From Kiritimatiellia bacterium (GTDB lineage: Bacteria; Verrucomicrobiota; Kiritimatiellia; CAIVKH01): 64,000 nucleotides of DNA. The translations under genes were made by a program, and so were the position numbers. Every line of letters starts with the position of its first letter. The first letter of the stretch is position 1. The notes under the pieces were generated by a model, which did not search any database, was not told the DNA's origin, and worked only from the letters and a program-made list of their open reading frames with translations. Shown piece by piece: positions 21,990 through 57,876 of this stretch. Where the stretch lies: positions 741,651 to 805,650 of the forward strand of contig JAOSKE010000001.1 of the NCBI GenBank assembly GCA_027493775.1, read 5' to 3'.

Positions 21990-22176
21990 TTTTGCCCGAC
22001 AAAATGCAGTCAGCGAAAAGGCGAAAAAATCAGGAGAAATGGAAAAATGGGGTCAGATAGCATGAAAGGCGGTTAGATCTCCGTATTGACGGATATCGGT
22101 TTTTCTTCGCGCAATATGATGTTAGCGCCCCGCCCCTTCCCGGAGCGCGAGGGGGTCGGATGGATGTTCAGATGCC

Positions 22177-24875: not shown

Positions 24876-24902
24876 GAAAAGTCTCCGTGACGCGGCTGTA
24901 TC

Positions 24903-25396
24903 TAGCCCGGATTATTCACGAAAAAACATGAAATACCGTTAAAATAATATTGGAAAACCTTTGCAACGTGCTATTGTTTAGATTGTTACAAAAAACCATA
25001 ACACAAGGTCTTCCAACGCCTGATACTTGCACAGACTGTCTTCTTTTTCCAGAACTTTTTCACAAGCCTCTTCACGTCAAATTCTCCGACCAGCGCCCCT
25101 CCAGTGATGGCGGCCTTTTGCTCCTCAAGGCGCGTGACCGAAAGATGAATCTTTGTCCGCGTTTGGCCGATGCCATCCTGGATCGCCGAGACGCCGCCAA
25201 GGTCGAACACTCGCTGCTCACCGGCTCATCCCCCGGATGGCTCCGCTATGCCAATGAGCGCTAGCAATCGCGAGAAAAGCCGTCTCCGGCCGCGCTTTGC
25301 CGAGCTTCAACACCGCGAAAACTTCAACTCCACAAAACTCACCTTTGCCATCCCGGAATTTATGCGCGTCCCAAGAGGTTCATGAATAATCCGGGA
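24903..25396. mobile_element. Internally deleted (MITE-like) derivative of the IS4-superfamily element whose full copy is at 52383..54075.
   Basis: Left end CCCGGATTATTCACGAAAAAACATGAAATACCG… and right end …GAATTTATGCGCGTCCCAAGAGGTTCATGAATAATCCGGG match the ends of the full copy. Only about 490 bp remain, with no intact transposase. Confidence 0.6.
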
Positions 25397-25541
25397 TAGT
25401 GCGCCGAAAAATCTTTACAACACCCCAGCCCTCCAAGACAATTCCACAACCGACAGTAGACGCATACGATCAGAGCAAGGAGCACACAAACACTCGCCCA
25501 CTCAATCGGATGTGATCCTAAACCACACTCGGAGGTGAACA

Positions 25542-26213: not shown

Positions 26214-26462
26214 ATGGCACTAAGAGCCTATCCGAAAATTCATCATTTGACAGTTTTCGTGCGCTGAGGTTGTCGAGGTCGGCGTTTCATCTGCAAGCAC
26301 GTCGTTGACAAGATCGTCCATTCGACGGTCTCGCCCTTCGTGAAGGCCAGCGCTTCGGCCAATGCGTTGAGCGCCATTCGGGTCAGCCCTCAGCGGTCTA
26401 TTGGTTGTCTATTGCGGTCTATTGGGGTCGCGTCTAGACATTTGGTTCCGCTGAAAAACCCC

Positions 26463-26666
26463 CTACTTGCGGATGCGCCCTTTTGGTTTGGCGGGCTGCG
26501 TTCGGATAAGGTGAAGTTCATGGCGGTCGAGTAGTTCCCACTCGACTTCTTCACCGCCCCCCAAGCCGATGGCGGCGGCCAGCGGAATGGGGATGTTGAC
26601 GTAAAGGCGAACCTTCACGCCCTTGGATCGAATAGCCTGCACTTTTAATGGATAAGTTGTTGTCAT
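26463..26666 (-). CDS. Small AbrB/MazE-like (swapped-hairpin) protein, a passenger ORF inside the IS, divergent from the transposase.
   Basis: 67 aa. MTTTYPLKVQAIRSKGVKVRLYVNIPIPLAAAIGLGGGEEVEWELLDRHELHLI is AbrB-like. An identical ORF sits in copy B with one substitution. Confidence 0.35.
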   Translation of the reverse strand: MTTTYPLKVQAIRSKGVKVRLYVNIPIPLAAAIGLGGGEEVEWELLDRHELHLIRTQPAKPKGRIRK

Positions 26667-26713
26667 TTCGATACGCTATCTGATAGACTAGCTATTAGCA
26701 AGAGGAAATTATC

Positions 26714-28366
26714 ATGAGTCTTCCGCCTGTCCAGCAACAACGAAGTCTCTTTGAGGTCAACGTGCAATTCGCGGGCCTGTTCAAGTCGGCGCCAGCGAAT
26801 CGCTTTGGCTTCTTCAGCGACACGATCATGCCGCAACTGCGCGAACTGCGCCCGCAACTTGAAGCGATGTATTGCGCGGACAATGGCCGCCCCGCCGAGG
26901 AACCCTCGCGGATGTTGGCCGTGTTGATCTTGCAATTCATGGAGGGACTGCCCGATCGCAAGGCGGTGGAGGCATGCACCTATGATCTGCGATGGAAGAT
27001 GGCGCTATGGATGGAAACGGATGAAGCGGCCTTTCACGCCACCAGCTTGGTGAAGTTTCGCAATCGGCTCCTGGAGCACAACCTCGTCGAGATCGGATTT
27101 GACGCCGTGCTCCAAGCCATGCGCAAGGCGGGTTATCTCAAGGCCCATAAAGCGCAGCGTCTGGACTCGACGCATGTCATCGGTTTGGTCAGCCACATGA
27201 GCCGATTGGAATGCGTTCGAGAGGCCATGCGGCTGGCGATGGAAGTATTGGCGGAGTTGCCCGAAAGCACACGTCCTGGATCATGGTCCCTGTGGTGGGA
27301 ACGGTATGTGCAGAGCGCCTTGGACTTCAAAACGGATGTAGAGACGCTCAAGCAGAAGATGACTCAGGCGGGCGAGGACGCCCGCGCGATCTTGGCATGG
27401 ATCGAGACGCAGGTTGATGCGGTCAAAAGCATGAAGTCGGTGAGTGTTTTACGGCGGGTGTACGAGGAAAACTTTCAACAAGAAGTGGGCGGTCAGACCG
27501 AGCAGACCCACTCGCGACCGTCCGGTGCGGTATATAATCCGCACGACCCGGATGCGCAGTGGAGCGCCAAGGGGACTATCGCTGGCAAGAACAAGGAGTG
27601 GGTGGGTTACAAAGCCCAAATCGCGGAGACTCTGCCAAGCGCGAAGCCGGAGATGAAGGCGCCCACCGACGCGGTAATCACCGCCATGGTCACCCAACCA
27701 GCCATAACGAGCGATCACGGATCGATCTCGGATGTGGAAGAGGAGTGGAAGCGCGAAGATTTGGACAAGCCGAAAGAGCTTTATGTGGATGGCGGCTATA
27801 TCTCCGGGGAGGCGCTGGCCGATGCGGGGCGTGAAGAGCGCGAGATTCATGGCCCCGTTCAACCGGCCCCGAAGCGCGGCGACCGCTTCAGCGCTGAGAG
27901 TTTTGACGTGGACATCGATCAGCGGGTGGCGATCTGCCCGGCCCGCCATGCCAGCACCAACTGCAGTCGCCTCGATGAAGTCAGTGGTAAGATCCACTAC
28001 CGCTTCGAATGGAATAACCATCTCTGCCAAGCGTGTGAGCTTCGCAGCCGTTGCCTGGGAGCCAACCAACGCCATCGGACGCTACTGGTGGGTCAGTATC
28101 ATTCACACATTCAGGCCCGTCGCCGCGAAATGAAAACGGGGGCGTTCAAAGAGCGGATGCACAAACGCAATGGGGTGGAAGGAACGATCAGCGAGCTAAA
28201 AAGAGGCTACGGACTGAGGCGGTGTCGGTATCGAGGGTTGATAAAAACCAGTTTGCAAAACTACCTCATTGGGGCCGCCTGCAACATCAAGCGGTGGGCC
28301 CGCCGCTTGGCCTGGGAAGCGCTTGGAAATGATGAGATCGGAATAGATCAAGCAGTCAGGGCGTAA
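26714..28366 (+). CDS. IS5/IS1182-family DDE transposase (550 aa).
   Basis: The C-terminal KRNGVEGTISELKRGYGLRRCRYRGLIKTSLQNYLIGAACNIKRW is the DDE_Tnp_1_6 signature. A long helical N-terminal domain is also present. Confidence 0.85.
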   Translation: MSLPPVQQQRSLFEVNVQFAGLFKSAPANRFGFFSDTIMPQLRELRPQLEAMYCADNGRPAEEPSRMLAVLILQFMEGLPDRKAVEACTYDLRWKMALWMETDEAAFHATSLVKFRNRLLEHNLVEIGFDAVLQAMRKAGYLKAHKAQRLDSTHVIGLVSHMSRLECVREAMRLAMEVLAELPESTRPGSWSLWWERYVQSALDFKTDVETLKQKMTQAGEDARAILAWIETQVDAVKSMKSVSVLRRVYEENFQQEVGGQTEQTHSRPSGAVYNPHDPDAQWSAKGTIAGKNKEWVGYKAQIAETLPSAKPEMKAPTDAVITAMVTQPAITSDHGSISDVEEEWKREDLDKPKELYVDGGYISGEALADAGREEREIHGPVQPAPKRGDRFSAESFDVDIDQRVAICPARHASTNCSRLDEVSGKIHYRFEWNNHLCQACELRSRCLGANQRHRTLLVGQYHSHIQARRREMKTGAFKERMHKRNGVEGTISELKRGYGLRRCRYRGLIKTSLQNYLIGAACNIKRWARRLAWEALGNDEIGIDQAVRA

Positions 28367-28595
28367 TACGCCATCCAAAAGAACGAAGGCGCGGGCAAAA
28401 ATGAGCAATCGAACGAATACAGTATGGCAATGCGCATGCCACCCCGCACGTTACGTATGTGTTGTGGCGAAGCGACTGCATATAAGAATGCAGGTCTGTA
28501 AGTTTTGTTGAGCGATGAGTTTTTTAAAGAGGGGTTTTTCAGCAGAACCGAATGTCTAGACTTGACCCCAACTGCTCCCCCAACTGCTCCCCAAC

Positions 28596-28899
28596 TGCTG
28601 GTTTGCAAAATTACCTCATTGGGGCTGCCTGCAACATCAAGCGGTGGGCCCGCTGCATGGCCTGGGAAGCGCTTGGAAATGATGAGATGGGAATAGATCA
28701 AGCAGTCAGGGCGTAATACGCCATCCAAAAGAACGAAGGCGCGGGCATAAATGAGCAATCGAACGACTACAGTATGGCAATGCGCATGCCACCCCGCACG
28801 TTACGTATGTGTTGTGGCGAAGCGACTGTATATAAGAATGCAGGCCTGTGAGCTTTTTTGAGCGATGAGATTTTTGAAAGAGGGTTTTTCAGCAGAACC
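28596..28899 (+). mobile_element. Partial extra copy of the IS 3' end (transposase tail plus right end) between copies A and B.
   Basis: 28596..28716 repeats the last roughly 40 codons of the transposase (…LQNYLIGAACNIKRWARCMAWEALGNDEMGIDQAVRA*). The tail ends in GGGTTTTTCAGCAGAACCGAATGTC, abutting the left end of copy B. Confidence 0.5.
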
Positions 28900-28925
28900 G
28901 AATGTCGGTTCTGCTGAAAAACCCC

Positions 28926-29129
28926 CTACTTGCGGATGCGCCCTTTTGGTTTGGCGGGCTGCGTTCGGATAAGGTGAAGTTCATGGCGGTCGAGTAGTTC
29001 CCACTCGACCTCTTCACCGCCCGCCAAGCCGATGGCGGCGGCCAGCGGAATGGGGATGTTGACGTAAAGGCGGACTTTCACGCCCTTGGATCGAATGGCT
29101 TGCACTTTTAATGGATAAGTTGTTGTCAT
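28926..29129 (-). CDS. Small AbrB/MazE-like passenger protein, copy B.
   Basis: Differs from 26463..26666 by G to A at one position (…IGLAGGEEV…). Confidence 0.35.
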   Translation of the reverse strand: MTTTYPLKVQAIRSKGVKVRLYVNIPIPLAAAIGLAGGEEVEWELLDRHELHLIRTQPAKPKGRIRK

Positions 29130-29176
29130 TTCGATACGCTATCTGATAGACTAGCTATTAGCAAGAGGAAATTATC

Positions 29177-30826
29177 ATGAGTCTTCCGCCTGTCCAGCAA
29201 CAACGAAGTCTCTTTGAGGTCAACGTGCAATTCGCGGGCCTGTTCACGTCAGCGCCAGCGGATCGCTTTCGCTTCTTCAGCGACACGATCATGCCGCAAC
29301 TGCGCGAACTGCGCCCGCAACTTGAAGCGATGTATTGCGCGGACAATGGCCGCCCCGCCGAGGAACCCTCGCGGATGTTGGCCGTGTTGATCTTGCAATT
29401 CATGGAGGGACTGCCTGATCGCAAGGCGGTGGAGGGATGCACCTATGATCTGCGATGGAAGATGGCGCTATGGATGGAAACGGATGAAGCGGCCTTTCAC
29501 GCCACCAGCTTGGTGAAGTTTCGCAATCGGCTCCTGGAGCACAACCTCGTCGAGATCGGATTTGACGCCGTGCTCCAAGCCATGCGCAAGGCGGGTTATC
29601 TCAAGGCCCATAAAGCGCAGCGTCTGGACTCGACGCATGTCATCGGTTTGGTCAGCCACATGAGCCGATTGGAATGCGTTCGAGAGGCCATGCGGCTGGC
29701 GATGGAAGTATTGGCAGAGTTGCCCGAAAGCACACGTCCTGGATCATGGTCCCTGTGGTGGGAACGGTATGTGCAGAGCGCCTTGGACTTCAAAACGGAT
29801 GTAGAGACGCTCAAGCAGAAGATGACTCAGGCGGGCGAGGACGCCCGCGCGATCTTGGCATGGATCGAGACGCAGGTTGATGCGGTCAAAAGCATGAAGT
29901 CGGTGAGTGTTTTACGGCGGGTGTACGAGGAAAACTTTCAAGAAGTGGGCGGTCAGACCGAGCAGACCCACTCGCGACCGTCCGGTGCGGTATATAATCC
30001 GCACGACCCGGATGCGCAGTGGAGCGCCAAGGGGACTATCGCTGGCAAGAACAAGGAGTGGGTGGGTTACAAAGCCCAAATCGCGGAGACTCTGCCAAGC
30101 GCGAAGCCGGAGATGAAGGCGCCCACCGACGCGGTAATCACCGCCATGGTCACCCAACCAGCCATAACGAGCGATCACGGATCGATCTCGGATGTGGAAG
30201 AGGAGTGGAAGCGCGAAGATTTGGACAAGCCGAAAGAGCTTTATGTGGATGGCGGCTATATCTCCGGGGAGGCGCTGGCCGATGCGGGGCGTGAAGAGCG
30301 CGAGATTCATGGTCCCGTTCAACCGGCCCCGAAGCGCGGCGACCGCTTCAGCGCTGAGAGCTTTGACGTGGACATCGATCAGCGGGTGGCGATCTGCCCG
30401 GCCCGCCATGCCAGCACCAACTGCAGTCGCCTCGATGAAGTCAGTGGTAAGATCCACTACCGCTTCGAATGGAATAACCATCTCTGCCAAGCGTGTGAGC
30501 TTCGCAGCCGTTGCCTGGGAGCCAACCAACTCCATCGGACGCTACTGGTGGGTCAGTATCATCCACACATTCAGGCCCGTCGCCGCGAAATGAAAACGGG
30601 GGCGTTCAAAGAGCGGATGCACAAACGCAATGGGGTGGAAGGAACGATCAGCGAGTTAAAAAGAGGCTACGGACTGAGGCGGTGTCGGTATCGAGGGTTG
30701 ATAAAAACCAGTTTGCAAAATTACCTCATTGGGGCCGCCTGCAACATCAAGCGGTGGGCCCGCCGCTTGGCCTGGGAAGCGCTTGGAAATGATGAGATCG
30801 GAATAGATCAAGCAGTCAGGGCGTAA
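29177..30826 (+). CDS. IS5/IS1182-family DDE transposase, copy B (549 aa).
   Basis: Near-identical to 26714..28366, with a one-codon indel (ENFQEVGG versus ENFQQEVGG). Confidence 0.85.
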   Translation: MSLPPVQQQRSLFEVNVQFAGLFTSAPADRFRFFSDTIMPQLRELRPQLEAMYCADNGRPAEEPSRMLAVLILQFMEGLPDRKAVEGCTYDLRWKMALWMETDEAAFHATSLVKFRNRLLEHNLVEIGFDAVLQAMRKAGYLKAHKAQRLDSTHVIGLVSHMSRLECVREAMRLAMEVLAELPESTRPGSWSLWWERYVQSALDFKTDVETLKQKMTQAGEDARAILAWIETQVDAVKSMKSVSVLRRVYEENFQEVGGQTEQTHSRPSGAVYNPHDPDAQWSAKGTIAGKNKEWVGYKAQIAETLPSAKPEMKAPTDAVITAMVTQPAITSDHGSISDVEEEWKREDLDKPKELYVDGGYISGEALADAGREEREIHGPVQPAPKRGDRFSAESFDVDIDQRVAICPARHASTNCSRLDEVSGKIHYRFEWNNHLCQACELRSRCLGANQLHRTLLVGQYHPHIQARRREMKTGAFKERMHKRNGVEGTISELKRGYGLRRCRYRGLIKTSLQNYLIGAACNIKRWARRLAWEALGNDEIGIDQAVRA

Positions 30827-31152
30827 TACGCCATCCAAAAGAACGAAGGCGCGGGCAAAAATGAGCAATCGAACGAATACAGTATGGCAATGCGCATGCC
30901 ACCTCGCACGTTAAGTATGTGTTGTGGCGAAGCGACTGCATATAAGAATGCAGGTCTGTGAGCTTTTTTGAGTGATGAGTTTTTTAAAAGAGGGGTTTTT
31001 CAGCAGAACCGAATGTCTAGACTTGACCCCAATTCCCCTACTGCCGCGACCCCAATTCCCCGCCAATTCCCCGCGTAGCACGAGCGCCCGTCAGAACGCG
31101 AGTAGGTCCGAGGCCCGCACCAGTGGGCCGAGGTAACATGACATGCCAACGA

Positions 31153-31683
31153 TTACGGTTCAGCCGCAACAGCACCACGGTCAACGATGCTGACGTCAAC
31201 AGCGCTAAACTTCCACTGGCCGTTTGTCTCCACGACGCGGATATCGTACTTCTCGCGCACAGTCATCTTGCCCCGGGACGACACAACCACTGCAACGATC
31301 TGAGTAGGCGACTGATTGGGGAACGCTTGGAAGTCTTCCAGCTTGATGCTGTGGAAGCCCGCCCGTTCATGCGCAGCATTGAAATCACGGCCCCGAGATT
31401 CTGGAATGGCATCTTCGCGCTCAACACCCGCAATGGCTTTGCGCGCTTCGGGCGTCAGATAGAAAAGGTAATCCCGCAAATTCGCCTCCACGTTGCTCTT
31501 CAAGAACCCAAGGAACGTCTTTTGTGGGGTCGAACAGTCGCGATGCGGAAGAGTATTCGCCACCGCGCGCGAAAGCTCTTGTCCTTGAAGTGCTGCCAGC
31601 GAAGGAGACTCTTCGGGCGGGCCGCCATGCACAGACAACGCAAACGCGAGAAGAAGCGGAAATAGTGCTGTTGGCTTTACCAT
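31153..31683 (-). CDS. Secreted hypothetical protein (NTF2-like/SnoaL-like fold suspected).
   Basis: Start MVKPTALFPLLLAFALSVHG is a signal peptide. The gene lies directly downstream of, and overlaps, the 1143-aa protein gene. Confidence 0.4.
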   Translation of the reverse strand: MVKPTALFPLLLAFALSVHGGPPEESPSLAALQGQELSRAVANTLPHRDCSTPQKTFLGFLKSNVEANLRDYLFYLTPEARKAIAGVEREDAIPESRGRDFNAAHERAGFHSIKLEDFQAFPNQSPTQIVAVVVSSRGKMTVREKYDIRVVETNGQWKFSAVDVSIVDRGAVAAEP

Positions 31684-34600
31684 GATCCACCTGACTTTGT
31701 GACATTGGTCCAGACTGGCGTTCCCGACGTTTCGTCCCAATACCAATAGACGTGAGGACTACTGTTGGCATCGATGACACAGGCATTCCGCCCGACGCCG
31801 AGGTCATTGGCTTGCTTCCACGCATCCACAATAGAAGCGCCTCCGCCCAAGGCGGACAGGAAGTTGGAGATGATTCCCGCCGAACCTTGATTATCAAGCG
31901 GAGCAGACCAGTTATAGCCCAAGAAATACTTCGGCCCAGTCGGTTCCCACTGGGCACCGGGCGACCACGCTCCTCTGGCCGCATACCACTGCAGCCAAGT
32001 GCCCAAGCCGAAACTCTGTGCGCGGTAATCCTTAATATCCAAGACAGAGCACCCAGCAAGGACTACGTAGTGCATATCCTTGTCCCAATAGCCGGTGACG
32101 TCGCTTGCCGAAAAACCACCCTGCAAAACCGCGGTGTCATGGCCACCATGTCCCGAGTAGTAGAAGTAATCCGCCTGATTCATGAGCTGGCGTTTGTGAC
32201 TGATCCCACAACTGTACTCGGCGGTAAGCACCTCCCGCCCCGCCGCGATAAAGAAGGTCTCATCAACTGGACTATTCGGCGGCGTCGATTCGAGATCGCC
32301 GTAGTTGGTGCTGCGGCCTCGTGTTTCCGCAGATGAGCCGCTCTCGAACGCTTCGCCGTCCGTCAGATTGGAGGGATCGGAAGAACTGCTGCTTCCGTGA
32401 TCGATCCACGCCTTCTCCGTGACTGAATCGCTCTCCTGACTCGGCAGGACACCGAGCGAAATCAGTTGAGCGCGCGTCAGTGCAACCCGCAACTCGGAGT
32501 ACCCACTTCCCTGCGTCAACGTCGTGTTCTGCGCAGTCAACGTAAAGTCTTGGCCGCTCGGAGCGGTCTCCGAAGTCTTGATCTTCAACGTCGTGCCGAG
32601 TGCGTCGAAGATGGTTTGAAGGTCGTTTAGTTGTGGCGTGATCTTGATCTTTATCCGGGTGTCCTTGTCCGAGAGGATGACTTTCCTTTCCTCCAGGTCG
32701 GCCCATCCCGAGTCGTCCGGATCGGCGAAAGTGATGTCCACAGAGAGGACGGCCATCTTATACTCGCCGCCCAAGGTGTTCGTATAGTCCGGATGCATGC
32801 CGAGATCCTGCACGAACAAGTAAGGGCGCGTATCGGCTCCTGCGCTGGCGCTGGTCACAACCTCCTGGTCACTGAGCCAGTGGACCCCTTTTTCAGTTGC
32901 GCCCCGCCACACCACCCGAAATTCCTCTTGCGTGCGACCCTCTTTAACCCAAACACACAAATCCATATCCGCCTTTAATCCCTCGAAATAGGTTTTGACC
33001 CATCCCTCCAAGCCAATATCCGTCATTCCATCGTTTACCCAACCCGGCAGCGAAGATTCATACCTGATAACATAGGGCTGGGCCATGGTGGAGTTTATAT
33101 CGTTGGGATCGCTGTTTTGTGCCAATTCATCATAATTTGAGATGCCGTCCCCATCCGCATCCGCATACAGATTGGTGCCTGGAAATGCCATCTCCCAACT
33201 ATCGGGTATCCCGTTGGCGTTTTCGTCGAGTACCAAGGGATTCCAGCCGTTGGCGATTTCATACGGGTCGCTACCCCACCAGTCGGACACCGCGCCAGAT
33301 GGCGGCGGCCAAGGAAATATGTCGCCATCCGTCGCCCAAGTGTTGGGATTCGTGCCGTGGGTGATGCATTCGGCATAGTCGGAGAGCCCGTCTCCATCGC
33401 TGTCGGCGTTGTGGCGGTCTGTGGGTTCCCCATAAGGGTTCAGGCTGCCTGTCAATTCCTCCTGATCGGTAAGCCCATCCCCGTCTGAATCGGGAATGTC
33501 GGCGGAAGAATTGGAGGTTGGGCTGCTTGTATACTGCCAGTCCATCACTTGATCGGTATCGTGCCCGTTGAACCGCCGATAAAGGCTCCTGCCGGCCCCC
33601 GCCGAAAGGGCATTGCTGCTAATCCAGCCGGTGGTGTCCAGTCCATGCGGGTTGAAGTTGGCGGCATTGCCGCCATACATCAGGCAATCGGCCACAAAGG
33701 TATTCGTGCCCACTTCCGCTGCGAGCCGCACCGCCGCTGTTGCGTCATTGGTGAACCGGTTGGGCATGGTGAAATCCACTTCCAAATCGCGATTCGTCAC
33801 CAGCGATCCGCCCAGCAGCAGGAACCGGCCCGGATCAATCCAGGTATTAGGCGGGAACACATAAGCATTGGTATAAGCTGTATCGGCAACCTGAATGACG
33901 AAGCCACCGAGATCCACAGGATAGCGTCCGGCGGAATATAGTTCGATCCACTCCTTGCCCCAATCCGTACCCGACGCGTCGTAAAGAACTTCATTGAGAA
34001 CGACGCCCCGCGCCAGCTTGGGAGCGCTGAACCGGTCGAGCGGATCGGTTTCCTCGGCCAGTTCCTCCGCATCGCTCCACCCGTCCCCGTCGGTGTCAGG
34101 ATTTCCGGGATCGGTGCGGTGAATGAAGATTTCCGCGCCATCGGTCAGCCCGTCGCCATCGGAATCCAACCGGTTCGCCACGGCATAAAACCGGACTCGG
34201 GCACTGGTGGGAATGTTCGCATCTTCAAAGATGCCAACCCCGTTAGTCAACACCAGATTGGTTGTCAGGCATTCCCACGCGTTTTCGATGCCGTCGAAGG
34301 GCGGGGAAACCGGATGCCAAGCCGTATGGCTGTTGGTCAAAACTTCGTCGTATTCGTTGGTCCAAACCACCACGGAAACGCTGGACGTGTGCCAAACGGT
34401 ATAGGCGAACACTTCGGCGGCGCTCGCTCCGTTCGTTACCGTGATCCGCATGGAACCATTGGTCAGGCACTGAATCCCGGCTATACCGAACTCGTTTGCG
34501 CCCAAGCTGCGCAAGACCATCCCGCCGGTCTTTTTCGTTTTGGCGGTCCGGGCTTCTTCGTACTCCGCGATGCGGCTTTCGGTGTATAGGTACGGCTCGA

Positions 34601-35108
34601 CATCCTCGGAGGGAAGCAAATCCAGTTGCAAGGTCACGCGGGACGGATCGGCATCCTCCGGCCATTCTCGGAAAACTTGATCGGTACGGATGGCCGCAAT
34701 CAGCTTGCCATCGGCGTTGAAAACAAGCGTTTCCCGCGTATCGGGGTCCAGCGTCAGCGAAAGCGGATAGATTGCCACGCTGTTCTTGTCCTCTCCTAAA
34801 AGCTCGGCCAGAAACTTCTCGTCGAAGTTCCTGGCGTCGAAAGGTACCACAGCCGGGGACATTGGCTGCACCCAAGAAAATCCCGGCGGAGTCATGCGAT
34901 TAAACACACGGCGCTGGACTTCTGCGCCTTCCGCCAAGTCCTGAATGTCTAAAACCTCATTCGCCATGAAATCAGCGTATTGCTCGGCATCAATTGCGGT
35001 GGGTTCTTCGGCGCGGGGAGGAGGCGACGCAAATGAAACAAGACATAGCGCGGTCAAAAGCGCAGCGATCCCGATAGCGGCTTGGGGATGCGTGTTCGAC
35101 TTATTCAT
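31677..35108 (-). CDS. Large secreted multidomain protein: signal peptide, thrombospondin type-3-like Ca-binding repeats, a lamin-tail (LTD)-like domain, and a C-terminal caspase/clostripain-fold cysteine peptidase-like domain.
   Basis: Signal peptide MNKSNTHPQAAIGIAALLTALCLVSFASP. TSP3 repeats (DSDGDGLTDGAE, DTDGDGWSDAEE, DSDGDGLTDQEE, DSDGDGLSDYAE, DADGDGISNYDE). LTD-like segment VVLNEVLYDASGTDWGKEWIELYSAGRYPVDLGGFVIQ. C-terminal His/Cys dyad context DYFYYSGHGGHDTAVL … YVVLAGCSVLDI. Confidence 0.65.
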   Translation of the reverse strand: MNKSNTHPQAAIGIAALLTALCLVSFASPPPRAEEPTAIDAEQYADFMANEVLDIQDLAEGAEVQRRVFNRMTPPGFSWVQPMSPAVVPFDARNFDEKFLAELLGEDKNSVAIYPLSLTLDPDTRETLVFNADGKLIAAIRTDQVFREWPEDADPSRVTLQLDLLPSEDVEPYLYTESRIAEYEEARTAKTKKTGGMVLRSLGANEFGIAGIQCLTNGSMRITVTNGASAAEVFAYTVWHTSSVSVVVWTNEYDEVLTNSHTAWHPVSPPFDGIENAWECLTTNLVLTNGVGIFEDANIPTSARVRFYAVANRLDSDGDGLTDGAEIFIHRTDPGNPDTDGDGWSDAEELAEETDPLDRFSAPKLARGVVLNEVLYDASGTDWGKEWIELYSAGRYPVDLGGFVIQVADTAYTNAYVFPPNTWIDPGRFLLLGGSLVTNRDLEVDFTMPNRFTNDATAAVRLAAEVGTNTFVADCLMYGGNAANFNPHGLDTTGWISSNALSAGAGRSLYRRFNGHDTDQVMDWQYTSSPTSNSSADIPDSDGDGLTDQEELTGSLNPYGEPTDRHNADSDGDGLSDYAECITHGTNPNTWATDGDIFPWPPPSGAVSDWWGSDPYEIANGWNPLVLDENANGIPDSWEMAFPGTNLYADADGDGISNYDELAQNSDPNDINSTMAQPYVIRYESSLPGWVNDGMTDIGLEGWVKTYFEGLKADMDLCVWVKEGRTQEEFRVVWRGATEKGVHWLSDQEVVTSASAGADTRPYLFVQDLGMHPDYTNTLGGEYKMAVLSVDITFADPDDSGWADLEERKVILSDKDTRIKIKITPQLNDLQTIFDALGTTLKIKTSETAPSGQDFTLTAQNTTLTQGSGYSELRVALTRAQLISLGVLPSQESDSVTEKAWIDHGSSSSSDPSNLTDGEAFESGSSAETRGRSTNYGDLESTPPNSPVDETFFIAAGREVLTAEYSCGISHKRQLMNQADYFYYSGHGGHDTAVLQGGFSASDVTGYWDKDMHYVVLAGCSVLDIKDYRAQSFGLGTWLQWYAARGAWSPGAQWEPTGPKYFLGYNWSAPLDNQGSAGIISNFLSALGGGASIVDAWKQANDLGVGRNACVIDANSSPHVYWYWDETSGTPVWTNVTKSGGSW

Positions 35109-35141
35109 GAGTTATTTTTCGGGTCTATTGGGGGTCTATTC

Positions 35142-35566
35142 GGGTCGAGTAAAGACATTTTCTATTTAGCGCCTTCTCGCAATACAGATAAACGCATACT
35201 CGTGACGAATAGGTAGCTGAGGCGGGCAAGTGAGGTCGGCCAATACGGTGCTGTTGTAGGCGGTTGTTCAAACGAGTTGTCACAGGGTCTGACGACGAGA
35301 GCGAAGCGAGGAGGGACTCAGGGAACGAGTCGAAGCCACAGCAAGAAAGTTCATACGGTTGCAACATGTCTAGTTTTCCACGATTTTGCGCCATAATACA
35401 GCCCGCAAACGAACCACGCAGTTAACCATCAACCCTCCCCAGATCGTTGTCAACACGCCTTTTGCCTTGGCCAAAATCACCGATCATGAGAATTGATCCC
35501 CACTCCCCCGTTTTGATTTTTGGACGCGAGAACACAAACCAAATGTCGAATGTCTAGACTTGACCC
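35142..35566. repeat. REP/BIME-like non-coding element (about 425 bp) bounded by the inverted 19-bp palindromic termini GGGGTCRAGTCTAGACATT … AATGTCTAGACTTGACCCC. Copy 1.
   Basis: Left terminus at 35142-35159 (degenerate: gggtcgagtaaagacatt). Right terminus at 35548-35566. The interior is conserved with copies at 55022-55446 and 63017-63393. GGTCTATTGGGG direct repeats precede the left end. Confidence 0.55.
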
Positions 35567-35998
35567 CAACTGCTCTAACTGCTCCGGTGTCTTATTTAAA
35601 GCGTTGTTCAAATATTTTATACATACCTCAATTAGCTTTAGTCGCTCATCTTGCGCATCTACTAAACACGTGCTCAACTCTGCAGTGGCAGAGGTAGGCC
35701 ACACCTTTAATACACCACGAACATTCGGGTTCAAATAGACCTCAATACGACGCATCATGACATCACCGCTGATCCAAGTTCCAAATATAGAACACAAAAA
35801 CCTAAACAGATAGCTGCCAGCGTATTCACGCAAATATGAACCGCGCATCTCTCTTACAAAATAACCGCGACCATACGCGAGCAGGGTTATCTGTTCTTGT
35901 GGTGTTGTCGCAGAATCAACGCCTACATCCTGCCATCCATGGCGCTTCTTAATAAATTTTATATTGCTAATCTCATTCACCCGGCTCACGCCCTTCAT
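35477..35998 (-). CDS. Immunity-protein candidate for the CT3 Rhs toxin. Reads through its normal stop because of a 1-bp deletion relative to the paralogue at 55470..55877.
   Basis: The first 134 aa ([28 protein letters not shown]…CIKYLNNA) are identical to the 135-aa copy at 55470..55877. An A-run (tttaaag versus tttaaaag) shifts the frame, so the ORF extends into the REP-like element. The gene is AT-rich compared with the Rhs core. Confidence 0.5.
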
Positions 35999-36692
35999 TT
36001 TTTGGGGTTAGTTCATTTTCAATTGCCTCTCGTGCGGTCTGCTCTAGAAGTGCTTTAATCGGATGAGCCAACAGCGTCTTTAGATTAGGCCCATCATTAA
36101 TAAAATCTGCAATACCCTCAGAAGCGGGACCCTCGCCCAGAAGTGTGGTCACAATCTTCCTGATAAGCTCTTCGCTTGCCTGAATCGCTTGCCCGGGAAC
36201 CTTCAGTAGTTCTTTCGCTTGTTCTGCGAGTTGGGAGGCGACGTTGTCGTAAGCATCTACAAGATGCTCCCAAACCGCACCTGCAAAATTATTAAGCGTA
36301 TATTCTCCAGCTTTCCAAGCCGCATCGCGTGGGTTCTCTCCCAACCCAAGCGGGTCGATATAATTGACCGGATCCCCATGACAGTACAGATACAGATTTG
36401 CCTGTCCGCCCCGAAACAGTATGGGGTCTTTGGCCAGCCATCTCCCAGTCATCGGATCATAATCCCTGTAGCCAAATCGGACCAAGCCCGTGCCAGGGTC
36501 ATACATACCACCCGCGAATCCGAATGGCTGAAATCCCGGGTTCGTGTCCTCCAGAACACTGCCCCATTCGTCGTAGTCCATCCGCTGCGCAACGGCGCCG
36601 GTCTGGGCATCCACCACCAGCCGCACGCTGCCAAGATGATCTGTAATGATCCGATACACATTTCCGGTCGTCATCATGCCTATACTCTTCAT
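35973..36692 (-). CDS. Orphan Rhs C-terminal fragment: end of the Rhs core plus a C-terminal toxin domain of unknown activity (CT3).
   Basis: …[105 protein letters not shown] is the RHS repeat-associated core (DPxGL), followed by a roughly 130-aa CT domain. The same CT sits at 55852..56250. Confidence 0.7.
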
Positions 36693-36811: not shown

Positions 36812-36866
36812 CGCGATACCGAAATTTATCCGCGTCCCAAGAGGTTCATGAATAATCCGGGCTAAC
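36812..36866. mobile_element. Solo right-end fragment of the IS4-superfamily element (as at 54020-54075).
   Basis: CCGAAATTTATCCGCGTCCCAAGAGGTTCATGAATAATCCGGGCT matches the right terminus of 52383..54075. Confidence 0.45.
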
Positions 36867-36905
36867 CGCCTTTCATGCTATCTGACCCCTATTCCCTGAC
36901 CCCAA

Positions 36906-37619: not shown

Positions 37620-39379
37620 TCATCCCCGAAATCCGGTTGGGTAAAGGAATCCAGAATGGGAGTGATTATATTCAACATGTCCACAGCTTGGTCTCCAGTC
37701 GCGGACGGGAGGCTGTCACGATACTCCTGGTATTGCTGATAGAAACCGAATGGAACACAGTCTGTGACATCCTTCCATGCATCGCAAAGACCTTTTCTTA
37801 CCTTGTCAATGGTGTCATCAATAAGATGGTAAATGATTTCAATTTCCTTTTTTGTCGAATCTATAATAATTTCTTGTATATCTTGAAAAAACAATTTAAC
37901 TTCTTCCCCTGTACCGTACGGATCAAATTTATTGACAGGATCGTTTCCAATATATACGTATAAATTCGCTTGTCCTCCCCGGAATAAAATAGGATCTTTA
38001 GCGAGCCAGCGACCCGTCGTTGGGTCATAATCCCGATAGCCGAACCGCGTCAGCCCGGTATCCGGATCGTACAGTCCACCCGCGAACCCGAACGGCTGAA
38101 AGCCCGGATTGCTGTCCTGTAGGACGTTCCCCCATTCGTCGTAGTCCAAGCGTTGCACCACATCGCCGCTGGCAACATCAATGACCAGCCGTACGCTCCC
38201 CAAGTGGTCCGTAATGATCCGATACACATTTCCGGTCGTCACCATATAGTCCGGCACATTTACCCTGGTGGCGTACACAAATCTGGCAACTACTTGATTA
38301 TTTGAGTTGACCTCCGCCGCCGGCGTCAGAAAGCCTTGATATACCCACCCTTTATTCAACACACCATTAACCTTCTTGCCCACGCGCCGCCCCAGCGGAT
38401 CCAAGAGATATTCGTATGTATTGGTCCCAACCCGTACCTCCATCAGGCTGCCCCGCGTATCATACCGCGTGGCTCGCGTCGGAACTGCTCCATACATATT
38501 GGTCACCTGACCGTTCGCATTGTACTGGTACTGAATCAGACCCCAGAAGCTGGCCGTCAGCCGATCCTGGGCATCGTATTGATATGTTCTCGATGATCCC
38601 GCAATCCAGCTATTAGTCCGGTTTCCATTGGCGTCATACCAGTACCGCGCGCGCAGGCTTCCATTGGTGTACACCTCGTGGAGTCGCCCCACGGAATCAT
38701 ACACATAGGCGTAATTGTTTGTGACGCCCTCGATTCTCTCCAACCGATTCGTGATCCGTCCCAGCTTGTCGTATGAGTAGTCCACGCCGTAATAGACGTA
38801 ATCGTTGTCGAATACAGCTTCGTATGAACTCATCTCTCCGAGGGCATTGTACTTCCGGCGGTCACCGATATCGCCGACGACGGCATTGGTCAACCAGCCG
38901 CTAACCGTATCGCGATATAGCGTCATCGTCCCTGCATTCGTCAACAATCCGTCCAGGTCATACCCATACGCAACCGCGCTACCGCCCAACTCGACGCTCG
39001 AAATCCGAAAGTCGTTGTTGTAGCTGTAGCTCATGCGCCCAGTGATTACACCGCTTTGCGTCAGGTTCGTCAACAGTCCTCCGTCATAACCGAAGATCAA
39101 GCTTGCCCCGTTGGTCGCGTAGATGCCGCCCAACCGCCCCCGTGCGAGTGCGTAAGCCGAGCATGGGGGCTTGGGGTCTGATCCCGCGCGCGCCGCACGC
39201 ATCGCAGGAGACATGCCAGTGCGTCGTCGCGCTGGCGCGGCTCCTGGGCGCGCGCGTCCGCCTGTGGCGAGCTTGTCGAGCCAGCGCGAGTGAGCGTACG
39301 CGAACGAGCATAACGAGCGACCAACGGGAGCGAGTAGCTCCGAGGGCCGCGCCAGCGGCCCGAGGCAAGAGACAATCAC
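37616..39379 (-). CDS. Orphan Rhs C-terminal module (YD repeats, Rhs core, and CT2 toxin domain). Rhs homology begins near 39190.
   Basis: From …CACGRLGGIYATNGASLIFGYDGGLLTNLTQSGVITGRMSYSYNNDF… onward it is about 85% identical to the main Rhs (39725..43631) through …[33 protein letters not shown]. Then comes a unique roughly 100-aa CT (…GTGEEVKLFFQDIQEIIIDSTKKEIEII…). The first roughly 85 aa of the ORF are out-of-frame GC-rich junk. Confidence 0.7.
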   Translation of the reverse strand: MIVSCLGPLARPSELLAPVGRSLCSFAYAHSRWLDKLATGGRARPGAAPARRRTGMSPAMRAARAGSDPKPPCSAYALARGRLGGIYATNGASLIFGYDGGLLTNLTQSGVITGRMSYSYNNDFRISSVELGGSAVAYGYDLDGLLTNAGTMTLYRDTVSGWLTNAVVGDIGDRRKYNALGEMSSYEAVFDNDYVYYGVDYSYDKLGRITNRLERIEGVTNNYAYVYDSVGRLHEVYTNGSLRARYWYDANGNRTNSWIAGSSRTYQYDAQDRLTASFWGLIQYQYNANGQVTNMYGAVPTRATRYDTRGSLMEVRVGTNTYEYLLDPLGRRVGKKVNGVLNKGWVYQGFLTPAAEVNSNNQVVARFVYATRVNVPDYMVTTGNVYRIITDHLGSVRLVIDVASGDVVQRLDYDEWGNVLQDSNPGFQPFGFAGGLYDPDTGLTRFGYRDYDPTTGRWLAKDPILFRGGQANLYVYIGNDPVNKFDPYGTGEEVKLFFQDIQEIIIDSTKKEIEIIYHLIDDTIDKVRKGLCDAWKDVTDCVPFGFYQQYQEYRDSLPSATGDQAVDMLNIITPILDSFTQPDFGDE

Positions 39380-39762
39380 CTAGCGCCAAGCGTAACATTC
39401 AAGGGCAAGACGGTGAACGCGGCAAAAACGACTGCAAGAATAACCAATAGAATGCCCGCGACTCGCAATGTGGCACTGTAATCGTGCGCGAAATGAATGC
39501 GCTGATTGACAACCCACAATAGAATTGACGCGGCCGCCAACACCCAAGGCAGGCACCACCAGACAGGCTGCATCACGTACAGCGAACCGGCCTTTTCTTC
39601 ATAAATTTCCAAAAGAAAAGGCCGAAGGCCGCGGACGAGAAACGCACACCCCAGCCAGAGCAACAACCCAAGAAAGGCAGAAGTCGAAATTGTTTGAATG
39701 TGTTTCAATGCGCGCTTCACAAAGTTACTTCTGTGGAGGATCGGGATCTGGTTTCTTGCCAC
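39376..39762 (-). CDS. Small membrane protein. Immunity candidate for the main Rhs CT1 toxin.
   Basis: 128 aa with 3 TM helices (…AFLGLLLWLGCAFLV…, …WWCLPWVLAAASILLWVV…, …GILLVILAVVFAAFTVL…). It overlaps the Rhs stop. Confidence 0.45.
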   Translation of the reverse strand: MARNQIPILHRSNFVKRALKHIQTISTSAFLGLLLWLGCAFLVRGLRPFLLEIYEEKAGSLYVMQPVWWCLPWVLAAASILLWVVNQRIHFAHDYSATLRVAGILLVILAVVFAAFTVLPLNVTLGAR

Positions 39763-43631: not shown

Positions 43632-44278
43632 GGTTCACATCCTTTGCAGGGATTCCCTGAAATGACCCGGGGCAAAACGCGCTCAAAGCCCGATAAGGGA
43701 TTGCTCGCCATCGAGCGAGCCGCCAAATCTTGGGCAAGCGCTGGATTTGTCTCTTTCAACAACTGAAGCGCAACTATCCGATTTTGATCTTCGGCTTTAT
43801 CGGAGAGAAGCAATGCCGTCGCCGCATTTTCAATGTCGCTGGAAGAAGCCTTGGGGTCCGATTTCATCACCAGCATAGCCGTGCCGGCGCTTTTGTTTTT
43901 CACATCAAACGCCGTTTGTTTCAAAAAATCGCCAATGGCGCGTTGCTCCGAAGCCGAAACTTTCTCGCGCAGGTTTAGCTGTAAATACTGCATGATATAT
44001 TCGCGCGTAACGCGCTCGCAGTCAGTCTCGCCCGCAATCGCAATCAATCGCTGCGCCAAATTGGGAACAGGCGGCGATTTCGTTGTGATGCGCCGCAAGA
44101 GCCGATCTTTCTGTCCCAGCCATTCTCCGGCGGAAATATCCTTTGGCGGCTCTTTCATCGCAATGTAGGCCAACGCCCGTTCATCTTCGGTTAAGCCTTC
44201 ATTGGACCACACAAAGGGGTTCTGAGCCGCTGCGGAATATCCGGCAACAACAATGAACAAAATGAATAATGCCTTCAT
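43628..44278 (-). CDS. Secreted hypothetical protein between the giant LamG/TSP3 protein and the Rhs toxin (start/stop overlaps on both sides).
   Basis: Signal peptide MKALFILFIVVAGYSAAAQ. 216 aa, helical. ATGA-type overlaps at 44275-44278 and 43628-43631 indicate one operon. Confidence 0.45.
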   Translation of the reverse strand: MKALFILFIVVAGYSAAAQNPFVWSNEGLTEDERALAYIAMKEPPKDISAGEWLGQKDRLLRRITTKSPPVPNLAQRLIAIAGETDCERVTREYIMQYLQLNLREKVSASEQRAIGDFLKQTAFDVKNKSAGTAMLVMKSDPKASSSDIENAATALLLSDKAEDQNRIVALQLLKETNPALAQDLAARSMASNPLSGFERVLPRVISGNPCKGCEP

Positions 44279-50403: not shown

Positions 50404-50510
50404 GGCATCGGCATTGGTTCCACCCGCGTTGACTGCGGGGCTGCCTGGGTGAAGATAGTTGGCTCCCCGCTGTTCTGTGTGGGTAGCCGATCGGGGGCTC
50501 TGCCCCCCGG

Positions 50511-52085: not shown

Positions 52086-52124
52086 AATATTTTTGAGCAG
52101 GGGTTTTTCAGCAGAACCAAATGT

Positions 52125-52345: not shown

Positions 52346-52382
52346 ACTTTCAAGAAGCCCCTTCGACACGAGAAATCTGCCG

Positions 52383-55000: not shown

Positions 55001-55021
55001 GATGATCCGTAACGTCTATTC

Positions 55022-55446: not shown

Positions 55447-55469
55447 ACTGCTCTAACTGCTCCGGTGTC

Positions 55470-57862: not shown

Positions 57863-57876
57863 AGCTCCAGTGTGTT

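Follow-up and report, generated by a model that had tools for sequence, protein, structure and literature searches.

The region between 26.4 and 31.0 kb of the window, the 64,000-nt stretch of a Kiritimatiellia genome analysed here, is a pile-up of IS1182-family insertion sequences. The IS inserts at a fixed distance of 13 nt from the GGGG of a 13-nt motif, termed P, and makes a 6-7-bp target duplication. P is target DNA and not a part of the IS; because it survives each insertion, the site would be re-used and tandem arrays would accumulate. Divergently from its transposase, the element also encodes a 67-aa AbrB-like protein. P-directed insertion, site re-use and an AbrB-like repressor together form what we consider the likely explanation of the region.

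Anatomy of the array

Two IS copies of about 2.1 kb had been predicted to lie head-to-tail at 26444-28549 and 28907-31010, and this was borne out, as were the outside flank sequences, which match exactly. The partial third 3' end reported between the copies is also present, but it starts at 28601 instead of 28596. The tandem arrangement is known from one MAG assembly and consists of the following features:

26424-26436: motif P, inverted (GGGGTCGCGTCTA), left of copy A
26437-26443: 7-mer GACATTT, separating P from the left end of copy A
26444-28549, plus strand: IS copy A, 2106 bp, IS1182 family
26444-26462 and 28531-28549: 19-nt terminal inverted repeats (IRs) of copy A
26463-26666, minus strand: 67-aa AbrB/MazE-fold ORF of copy A, whose stop codon abuts the left IR
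26660-26692, plus strand: divergent control region of copy A
26714-28366, plus strand: transposase of copy A, 550 aa (DUF772, DDE_Tnp_1 and DDE_Tnp_1_6)
28550-28569: 7-mer GAATGTC and motif P (TAGACTTGACCCC), right of copy A
28570-28600: spacer from P to the truncated IS, made of short tandem repeats
28601-28899, plus strand: older, 5'-truncated IS copy (the stump), last 299 bp, right IR at 28881-28899
28900-28906: left 7-bp target-site duplication GAATGTC of copy B
28907-31010, plus strand: IS copy B, 2104 bp
28926-29129, minus strand: 67-aa AbrB-like ORF of copy B
29138-29155: operator-like palindrome of copy B
29177-30826: transposase of copy B, 549 aa
31011-31030: right duplication GAATGTC of copy B (31011-31017) and motif P TAGACTTGACCCC (31018-31030)

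Copies A and B are 98.6% identical to each other, and the stump is 95% identical to either. The GACATTT to the left of copy A occupies the position of a target duplication, its right-hand partner being the inverted GAATGTC. The spacer is made of about three units of CCCCAACTGCT, which start inside P at 28565.

The element has 19-bp inverted repeats at its ends (GGTTCYGCTGAAAAACCCC) and a DDE transposase, and its assignment to an IS5/IS1182-type family holds: the NCBIfam IS1182 model matches the transposase with E = 1.6e-79 (268 bits against a cutoff of 270 bits), and Pfam finds DUF772 and DDE_Tnp_1_6 in both the 550- and the 549-aa protein. The 19-nt IR occurs six times in the window against 0.02 expected. 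One occurrence is a solo right end:

52100-52138: right IR (52100-52118), followed by AAATGTC and P (TAGACGCGACCAC)

This right end directly precedes AAATGTCTAGACGCGACC, as had been noted, but the label "unrelated IS" does not fit. Since its 19-nt IR is identical to that of the array IS while its interior is diverged, the fragment belongs to another lineage of the same clade.

The 67-aa protein and the transposase promoter

As predicted, both copies hold an intact 67-aa minus-strand ORF that is divergent from the transposase, and the ORF is intact in every copy seen. It had been called an unusual passenger; it is instead carried as standard, as an accessory gene, by a large IS clade, and it is also found in IS1380 and ISNCY-like elements. 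Homologs number 655 (63-97% identity), and clustering at 50% identity divides the family into 479 clusters. Nine distinct homologs were inspected; every one adjoins a DDE transposase, of the IS1182, IS1380 or ISNCY-like type, and is divergent from it wherever both genes are resolved. Synonymous and nonsynonymous codon changes number 24 and 4 against the copy on contig L063, and 5 and 1 between copies A and B, a pattern that indicates purifying selection on the protein.

The AbrB/MazE-like nature of this conserved gene is upheld by its predicted fold. The AlphaFold2 model is beta-beta-alpha-beta-beta (pLDDT 74.5), and the top seven Foldseek matches in the PDB are all MazE, AbrB or SpoVT (E of 0.4-1). 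By sequence the AbrB assignment is weak, as the Pfam AbrB match (E = 0.039) falls below threshold; a PDB sequence search with the 67-aa protein returned no match.

In the control region of copy A, a promoter-like -35 TTGTCA (26660-26665) and -10 TAGACT (26684-26689) are overlapped by an operator-like palindrome, GCTATCTGATAGACTAGC (26675-26692). No other promoter-like site was found there. The palindrome, of the form GCTAGTCTA..TAGACTAGC, is intergenic and always accompanies the small gene; related forms are conserved across IS1182, IS1380 and ISNCY-like hosts, and a perfect one is seen in L087 (AAGGCTAGTCTATAGACTAGCCTT). Within the window, the exact 9-mer TAGACTAGC is confined to the two IS copies. 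Because the palindrome always covers the promoter, the 67-aa protein is probably a transposase repressor. It would bind GCTAGTCTA-n-TAGACTAGC, overlapping the -10 of the transposase promoter, and once bound would repress transcription of the transposase as well as its own.

It seems doubtful that the protein is instead an orphan MazE-type antitoxin, or a targeting or architectural factor that binds P. The fold matches do include MazE and VapB antitoxins, and GTCTAGAC, which lies inside P in this genome, resembles the operator half-site GTCTA/TAGAC (the palindrome holds GTCTA..TAGAC). However, a search for a toxin gene in the 2.1-kb element found none, and lineages without the small gene (a delta-proteobacterial IS of 1839 bp, and L050) still insert beside P. 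The P of other lineages lacks GTCTAGAC, and the conserved palindrome lies between the genes, across the promoter-like -10.

Motif P, target duplication and probable re-use of the site

Motif P is GGGGTC-N7, with the consensus RGGGTC-R-N-G-Y-C-T-W. GTCTAGAC occurs at 11 sites in the window against 0.21 expected, well above chance, and all 11 are half-sites of P. Four small non-coding repeat elements of about 190-430 bp also have 20-bp terminal inverted repeats formed by P:

35141-35567: e35, bounded by inverted P, both target positions empty; its left P is degenerate (GTAAAGAC)
55021-55445: e55, of the same element family as e35, both P sites empty
57879-58066: e57, 188 bp, P-bounded; the insertion on metagenome contig L004 has its empty counterpart at the right end (7-mer 58047-58053)
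63018-63393: e63, P-bounded, both sites empty

Eight P sites in the window are without an IS. The proposal that a recurrent, repeat-associated sequence is targeted was confirmed, as other copies adjoin the same motif: of the 98 distinct flanks surveyed, 28 have GG[GA]TC beginning 18-19 nt away from the IS end, whereas any other offset from 5 to 60 nt accounts for 0-2 flanks each. The P-associated lineages in this survey have transposases only 40-43% identical to those of the window.

Thirty complete elements, comprising full IS and miniature derivatives from the window, genome and metagenome contigs, were compared; the complete relatives come from several phyla and their transposases are 40-100% identical. 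Exact 6-7-bp direct repeats abut the core IRs in 12 of the 30 (L008, L014, L023, L028, L050, L054, L071, L073, L076, L082, L085 and copy B), and near-duplications are found in three more (L015, 5/6; L062, 6/7; L081, exact 5 bp). The flanks of L003 (GCCATTC and GACGTTT) form no clean duplication. In the duplication-bearing elements P lies just outside the duplication and on one side only, as in copy B, which has a perfect GAATGTC duplication and P on its right. One delta-proteobacterial MAG with long contigs holds three copies with a duplication and a solitary P.

Empty and occupied sites could be compared directly. Contig L004 carries the same IS inserted at window position 58053/58054, which is empty in the window (100% identity over 184 nt); it shows the right junction of the insertion only. 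A left junction matching this insertion is present on L001 and L100, but its identity to the window extends over only 28-29 nt. On L008, a P-bounded element is empty at its left end and holds a miniature derivative with the duplication AGTTTTC at its right end; in L050, the corresponding left end is occupied by a full IS with the duplication GAAAATT. The duplication begins immediately after P, and a single P suffices for insertion. We infer that the transposase or a partner reads the 13-nt motif; the reader could also be a host protein.

The original prediction held that the IS recognises a REP-like hairpin, by its sequence or its structure, and inserts at the exact centre of a 19-mer palindrome, copy A and the 52.1-kb end being two such hits. 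On this model no target duplication would be made, as with IS1272 at stem-loops. Copy A, L001, L002, L032, L036 and L100 do have inverted P on either side and lack a direct repeat, and insertion at inverted repeats or hairpins without any duplication is documented for IS1272/TnSha1, of the IS1182 family (PMC4923244, PMC5678879). Nevertheless, this reading is very doubtful. No intact palindrome exists in the window, where neither GGGTCNNGTCTAGACNNGACCC with up to 3 mismatches nor GACATTY-N0-12-RAATGTC gave a match, nor in 564 kb of related DNA, where the two members of the closest inverted P pair together cover 88 nt, measured from end to end. It is also at odds with the clean 6-7-bp duplications and one-sided P of copy B and at least 11 relatives, and with the solitary P of the three delta-proteobacterial copies. 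The metagenome contigs with symmetrical flanks and no duplication (L033 in addition to the five named above) are likely chimeric assemblies across the 2.1-kb repeat, as they have flanks in common with other contigs; symmetrical, duplication-free insertion could be a genuine second mode. The determinant is one asymmetric 13-nt motif adjoining a 6-7-bp target duplication.

Copy A has inverted P on both sides without a direct duplication (GACATTT versus GAATGTC). Its symmetrical flanks are not hairpin halves but the two terminal inverted repeats of a 190-430-bp element, and its present state is probably due to a secondary event, a deletion that removed the body of this host element. Such a deletion may have been an IS-mediated adjacent one, extending to the second P site of the host element, or may have come from recombination between two IS copies inserted at both element ends.

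With P-directed insertion, P and one duplicated 7-mer would stay intact beside the IS, so that the landing site is regenerated and can be hit again. Two copies and a fragment are adjacent because the IS lands a fixed 13 bases from the motif and leaves the landing site intact. Copy B would have landed at a GAATGTC/P site already held by the older copy that is now the stump, and the outcome would be a head-to-tail pair with exactly the 7-bp duplication between. The GAATGTC at 28900-28906 doubles as the spacer of the abutted IRR-IRL junction.

IR-IR junctions are formed by circle or dimer intermediates in IS30, IS911 and IS256, and the IRR-7 bp-IRL junction at 28881-28925 resembles them, as do abutted IRR-6/7 nt-IRL junctions in L048 and L081. 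A rival reading takes the array for a transposition intermediate of the (IS)2-dimer or circle-junction type, or for an assembly artefact of such an intermediate, in place of successive independent insertions. This is unlikely, as the left partner of the junction is the stump, 95% identical to copy B against 98.6% between A and B, and the spacer equals B's right-hand target duplication beside P, as site re-use predicts. Distinct SNPs and a 3-bp indel mark the A-B block, the two transposases are listed individually (MCZ7591286.1 and MCZ7591288.1) on one 1.4-Mb contig, and IS1272 circles were not detected by others.

It is highly improbable that P belongs to the IS, with true IRs of about 42 bp (TTGGGGTCGCGTCTAGACATTTGGTTCCGCTGAAAAACCCC) and with e35, e55, e57 and e63 as non-autonomous MITEs having only the outer 20 bp in common: a 42-nt, 90% complementary inverted repeat does span the A-B block, these 20 nt are found at either end of the e-elements and P accompanies the IS clade across phyla, but the position of the duplications between core IR and P largely refutes this, the left end of copy B and the right end of L004 are without P, the 6-9 nt that separate IR and P differ from one near-identical copy to the next and agree with the opposite flank, and no duplication is detectable outside P in the e-elements.

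Comparison with known systems

Palindrome or hairpin targeting has already been documented for the IS1182 family (PMC4923244, PMC5678879). IS1272/TnSha1 of staphylococci have a transposase of the same family as the array IS; both show a preference for inverted-repeat targets, return to these in either orientation and are accompanied by extra copies of one end sequence (PMC4923244, PMC5678879). The AbrB-like gene of the array IS is absent from these IS1272 descriptions, according to which IS1272 follows no primary-sequence consensus, makes no target duplication and deletes or replaces the stem-loop (PMC4923244, PMC5678879). In contrast, the array IS uses a 13-nt motif at a fixed offset, which is present once and preserved, and makes a 6-7-bp duplication.

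The loop of REP/BIME hairpins is where IS1397 and ISKpn1 (IS3 family) and other REP-targeting IS insert. The original prediction drew this analogy, and the array IS is likewise specialised on a short, repeated, palindrome-associated intergenic sequence. However, no short hairpin is involved: P, which either stands alone or makes up the terminal repeats of 190-430-bp elements, works as an asymmetric half-site. IS4321 and IS5075 (IS1111 group) target the 38-bp IRs of Tn21-type transposons with a DEDD transposase and without duplication. The array IS likewise enters another, mobile-looking element at a single set point within its terminal inverted repeat, but its transposase is of the DDE, IS1182 type and a 6-7-bp duplication is made; the P-bounded elements are putatively mobile. 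Abutted IRR-spacer-IRL junctions and head-to-tail arrays are shared with IS30, which forms (IS)2 dimers and targets IRs. In the array described here, however, one side of the junction is the diverged stump, and an ordinary target duplication at a site used more than once explains the spacer.

AbrB-type antitoxins are reportedly found in Tn3-family transposons. The 67-aa protein resembles the swapped-hairpin AbrB, MazE and SpoVT proteins in its predicted fold of about 50 residues, its small size and its basic tail. It differs from them in forming a tight, separate family by sequence and in having no toxin partner; moreover, its gene is invariably divergent from that of a DDE transposase and comes with a conserved palindrome of its own. 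In its presumed role, that of an element-encoded DNA-binding limiter of transposase expression, it resembles InsA of IS1, OrfA of IS911 and the Tn5 inhibitor. These small regulators are derived from the transposase frame or N-terminus, whereas the 67-aa gene is independent, lies on the opposite strand and is common to three transposase families at 63-97% identity.

The IS array and its family

The region at 26.4-31.0 kb is a real and well-supported mobile-element structure. It consists of two full copies of an IS1182-family element (copy A and copy B) and, between them, the 3' end of a third copy (the stump):

26444-28549, IS copy A, 2106 bp, head to tail with the rest of the array
28550-28600, spacer of 51 bp between copy A and the stump
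28601-28899, stump, the last 299 bp of a third IS copy
28900-28906, GAATGTC, the seven bases between the stump and copy B
28907-31010, IS copy B, 2104 bp

The array anatomy was re-derived, and the coordinates and sequences quoted in the original prediction proved essentially right. Copies A and B are 98.6% identical to one another, and the stump is 95% identical to each. The full copies end in 19-nt terminal inverted repeats (GGTTCYGCTGAAAAACCCC; 18-19 of 19 positions match), and this sequence occurs six times in the window against 0.02 expected. The source contig (1.4 Mb, Kiritimatiellia MAG) contains at least six transposase genes of this IS (MCZ7591286.1, -288, -313, -318, -446 and -502), and an identical transposase is annotated on it. 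An exact-protein look-up with the 67-aa ORF and the copy B transposase gave no match, and Rfam gave none across the whole window.

The transposase (550/549 aa) matches Pfam DUF772, DDE_Tnp_1 and DDE_Tnp_1_6, all above threshold. The NCBIfam IS1182 model NF033551 scores 268 bits (E=1.6e-79, model positions 37-487 of 488), which is 2 bits under its equivalog cutoff of 270 bits; the next family reaches 82 bits only. The element thus has the DDE transposase and the bounding inverted repeats of an IS1182 member, and it departs from the single transposase ORF of the family by a second conserved ORF of 67 aa on the opposite strand. IS1182 elements range from 1.3 to 2 kb; the 2106 bp found here are slightly longer because of this extra ORF. 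Relatives that lack the AbrB-like gene exist and measure 1839 bp.

Target motif and origin of the array

Elements with transposases only 40-43% identical to that of the window end in the same 19-nt repeat, as do miniature derivatives of 89-395 bp. Such elements are present in many metagenome contigs and in MAGs that are labelled as Verrucomicrobiota, Armatimonadetes, Planctomycetota or delta-proteobacteria; contigs carrying relatives are numbered with the prefix L. Since about nine matches to the 19-mer are expected by chance, as estimated from the size of the genome collection, only those beside a transposase were accepted as IS ends. The ends were paired for 30 complete elements, and 12 of these have exact direct repeats of 6-7 bp abutting the 19-nt repeats: L008, L014, L023, L028, L050, L054, L071, L073, L076, L082, L085 and copy B, in which GAATGTC is present at 28900-28906 and 31011-31017. 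Near-duplications were found in three more (L015, 5/6; L062, 6/7; L081, exact 5 bp). Target duplications in the IS1182 family are variable, 0-60 bp according to ISfinder, and the 6-7 bp fall inside this range. For ISPse1, a target duplication of 4 bp was reported (PMC3281130).

In the elements with a duplication, a 13-nt motif, here called P (GGGGTC-N7; for example GGGGTCGCGTCTA, GGGGTCACGTCTT and GGGTCAGGCTAT), lies directly outside the duplication and on a single side only. Its consensus is RGGGTC-R-N-G-Y-C-T-W, with GGGG at a fixed distance of 13 nt from the duplication. Of 98 distinct flanks, 28 have GGGTC beginning 18-19 nt from the IS end, and every other offset between 5 and 60 nt accounts for 0-2. 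The nucleotides that separate the repeat from P vary even where copies are nearly identical, and they recur on the opposite flank; moreover, eight P sites in the window are unoccupied. These observations show that P belongs to the target and not to the IS. The possibility that P belongs to a long inverted repeat was rejected, as the duplications lie between the core repeat and P; P and the IS's own inverted repeat have GGGGT alone in common, which is not convincing as a similarity.

The insertions had originally been placed at the centre of a 19-mer palindrome. There are 11 occurrences of the sequence GTCTAGAC in the window, where 0.2 would be expected, and every one is a half-site, either ...TCTATTGGGGTCGAGTCTAGACATTT... 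or the inverse ...GAATGTCTAGACTTGACCCCAACTGCTC...; two forms of the intact palindrome were searched in the window and neither is present. Close inverted pairs of P were sought in 564 kb (the window and related loci), where none is shorter than 88 nt end to end and the pairs span 88-425 nt. A duplication of TA or CTAG inside GTCTAGAC, which would put the IS ends at GACATT...AATGTC, was rejected because the left junction of copy B and the right junction in L004 have no TAGAC. The proposed analogy with IS1397 and REP hairpins fails, as no intact short palindrome (20-40 nt) was found and a solitary P suffices. The target motif often lies in inverted-repeat elements, yet it is no hairpin itself. 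The mechanism is revised from insertion at a hairpin centre to an insertion that is directed by the motif, forms a duplication, hits the terminal repeats of small repeat elements and re-uses the site. For annotation, this means that seeming palindromic targets or long inverted repeats can turn out to be surviving termini of a host repeat element.

Apart from four half-sites beside IS ends, the half-sites bound four small elements, all P-bounded and non-coding:

35141-35567, e35
55021-55445, e55
57879-58066, e57
63018-63393, e63

These elements are 190-430 bp long, have 20-nt terminal inverted repeats (GGGGTCGAGTCTAGACATT) and lie directly upstream of minus-strand genes, namely RHS-type modules (54359-55000, 57281-57862 and 60837-63230) and a 1143-aa gene (31677-35108). 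Target duplications outside the elements were sought and none was found, and their outer flanks are conserved and asymmetric. They may be MITEs, cassette boundaries or regulatory repeats. At the right ends of all four, a tandem 7-mer, (A/C)AATGTC GAATGTC, stands beside P (35540-35556, 55418-55434, 58040-58053 and 63366-63382); it looks like both copies of a duplication after loss of an IS, perhaps an excision footprint. In several unrelated genomes, short tandem repeats with units of 9-18 nt (e.g., GGTCTATTG x3 and CCCCAACTGCT x3) directly adjoin P on its outer side, that of GGGG: at 26390-26423, 28565-28599 and 31025-31075 in the window, and in L014, L036 and L041.

Comparison of empty and occupied sites supports the target rule. 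In L004, from a near-identical strain, the right end of the IS is joined to window positions 58053 to 57870 at 100% identity, which places the insertion between the 7-mer GAATGTC (58047-58053) and P of e57, a point that is empty in the window. L001 and L100 have the complementary left junction (P + GACATTC / IS), in which identity to the window ends after 28-29 nt; as the partner of the L004 junction, it is suggestive only. In L008 (Armatimonadetes MAG), the left end of a small P-bounded element is empty and its right end contains a 185-bp derivative with the duplication AGTTTTC, while L050 has a full IS in the corresponding left end, with the duplication GAAAATT. The L008 locus (DPJP01000075.1, 5251-5564) is nested like a Russian doll: an 88-nt P-bounded element, also seen in L044 and L062, lies inside the 185-bp derivative, and this derivative in turn occupies a terminal repeat of a larger P-bounded element.

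Beside an inserted IS, P and one of the duplicated 7-mers are preserved, which regenerates the landing site for re-use. In copy B, the left duplication comes immediately after the right repeat of the stump, an older copy, and the right duplication stands just before P, which is what is expected of a second hit at the same site. Equivalent junctions, in which two repeats are separated by 6/7 nt, also occur in L048 and L081. Alternatively, the tandem might be an (IS)2 dimer or a circle junction. The geometry of such a junction (IRR-spacer-IRL) is present at 28881-28925, and its left member is the 299-bp stump, not an equivalent full copy; copy B is no dimer partner of the stump because the two differ by 5%. 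With the target rule, tandem and nested IS arrays can be explained without dimer intermediates.

Copy A has inverted P on both sides, and its 7-mers are inverted, not direct (GACATTT / GAATGTC). In the simplest reading, copy A would be flanked by both terminal repeats of an e-type element that lost its body. This may have come about by an IS-mediated adjacent deletion that reached the element's other P site, or by recombination between two IS copies, one at each end of such an element. The metagenome contigs that show symmetrical flanks like these have flanks in common with one another and are probably chimeric across the 2.1-kb repeat.

The solitary IS end at 52100-52118, previously attributed to an unrelated IS, is that of a diverged IS from the same clade: about 54 nt only resemble copy A, at 87% identity, and the end adjoins a 7-mer and P. 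That it is the right inverted repeat of a neighbouring ISL3 element was rejected, because that element owns repeats at 50458-50489 and 51931-51962. The DNA to the left of the solitary end (51963-52099) holds CCCTTTTGGCTTGGCG, which resembles the IS left-end region GCCCTTTTGGTTTGGCG, where the C-terminus of the AbrB-like ORF is encoded; this suggests a miniature deletion derivative that the ISL3 insertion truncated.

Several other mobile elements are present in the window:

50458-51962, ISL3-family element with a 437-aa transposase and 32-nt imperfect inverted repeats
52146-54076, IS1380-family element (transposase 52656-53864)
24902-25399, internally deleted IS1380 derivative of about 500 bp, just upstream of the array
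58181-59377, IS4-family element

The ISL3 element lies about 55 bp beyond the start codon of a 2042-aa RHS-locus ORF (44275-50403, minus strand), and its flanks show no duplication between them, which suggests later rearrangement. The IS1380 derivative matches the window's IS1380 element in segments of 97% and 84% identity. The IS4 element's ends begin with GGGGTCAGATAGCATGAAAGG and hence also with GGGGTC, and solo ends elsewhere (22046-22085, 36862-36903 and 59552-59603) are followed by tandem repeats containing TGACCCC. Paralogous blocks of RHS/YD-repeat C-terminal modules lie on the minus strand at 94-95% identity (35134-36656 vs 55014-56535; 56231-57872 vs 61107-62748; 37964-40517). With these blocks and several IS families, the region looks like a recombination-prone island.

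The small protein and its operator-like palindrome

The 67-aa ORF lies on the strand opposite the transposase and ends in a stop codon that abuts the left repeat. Three findings mark it as a real gene: 655 homologs share 63-97% identity with it (almost all of them on contigs about 2 kb long), its family forms 479 clusters at 50% identity in a library of 1.84 billion proteins, and codon changes are mostly synonymous (24 synonymous to 4 nonsynonymous against L063; 5 to 1 between copies A and B). PF04014 (MazE_antitoxin) scores 14.3 bits (E=0.039), below its cutoff of 24.7 bits, and a profile search of PDB sequences gave nothing meaningful. The AlphaFold2 model (pLDDT 74.5) is beta-beta-alpha-beta-beta, with strands at 8-12, 20-24, 41-45 and 51-55 and a helix at 27-32, and the seven best Foldseek matches in the PDB are all MazE, AbrB or SpoVT (probability 0.57-0.82, E 0.4-1.1). 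This weak but consistent signal from the model suggests an AbrB/MazE/SpoVT half-barrel fold. No toxin gene, as would accompany a MazE-type antitoxin, was found beside the small gene; the only other family-supported ORF is the transposase.

In the neighbourhoods inspected, all nine distinct homologs adjoin a DDE transposase, divergently wherever both genes are resolved, and the transposases belong to three families.

Table. Elements carrying the small-protein gene, by transposase family.
IS1182: window, L028-37, L038, L061 and L063, degenerate in L025; tblastn matches to the window transposase
IS1380: L026 (2302-4402); NF033539, 348 bits; small gene inside 25-bp repeats
ISNCY/IS5-like: L087 (/L091), L095 and L096; NF033593, score below cutoff

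Besides the window, L028 is the sole IS1182 locus in the table scored with NF033551 (257.6 bits against the 270-bit cutoff). In the IS1380 and ISNCY/IS5-like elements, the small gene is about 63-70% identical and divergent from the transposases. The intergenic region always has a related palindrome (GCTAGTCTA-n-TAGACTAGC), which is perfect in L087 and which, in the window, overlaps the -10 (TAGACT) of the sole promoter-like site upstream of the transposase; the exact 9-mer TAGACTAGC is found nowhere in the window outside the IS copies. The conserved palindrome in the promoter region indirectly suggests that the small protein may dimerise and bind DNA. Because the palindrome is conserved and overlaps the promoter-like -10, a role as repressor of transposase transcription and of its own is favoured, and we propose that the window IS carries a portable AbrB-like control gene. 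The small protein is not needed for targeting, since lineages without its gene (the 1839-bp delta-proteobacterial IS and L050) still insert beside P. We found no literature report of an AbrB-type accessory gene in IS1182 or another IS, which is weak negative evidence.

Comparison with known systems

A wider reading is tentative, and less likely than not. A widespread IS1182 clade (Kiritimatiellia, Verrucomicrobiota, Armatimonadetes, delta-proteobacterial MAGs and diverse unbinned metagenome contigs) would have a 13-nt landing pad of its own (RGGGTCRNGYCTW), which would be recognised at a fixed offset, renewed by each insertion and often supplied by co-resident miniature inverted-repeat elements, themselves nested in IS derivatives; the small protein and its operator would be a portable cassette exchanged between three unrelated to distant DDE families (IS1182, IS1380 and ISNCY/IS5-like). 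If true, two kinds of mobile DNA would form a safe-harbour partnership that builds tandem and Russian-doll arrays, and a control module moving with its operator between three IS families, at 63-97% identity, would be an unusual case.

To our knowledge, the IS1182 family is mechanistically almost unstudied, and palindromic targets are reportedly described for it by Siguier et al. in 2015. The present system differs from IS1397 and REPs in having no intact short hairpin, and from (IS)2 in that the junction partner is a diverged stump. That members of the IS1182 family target palindromes or hairpins has been documented before: the insertions of IS1272/TnSha1 follow no sequence consensus and leave no duplication, and the stem-loop is deleted or replaced (PMC4923244, PMC5678879). 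In contrast, the present clade has a defined asymmetric motif at a fixed offset, makes a 6-7-bp duplication and preserves the target, which is hence re-used. The insertion of IS1272 at hairpins without duplications, the sole well-described behaviour in the family, offers no sequence rule. The rule found here is simple (a 13-nt motif, a fixed offset and a 6-7-bp duplication), holds across transposases that are only 40% identical, and provides a handle on site-directed insertion by a DDE transposase.
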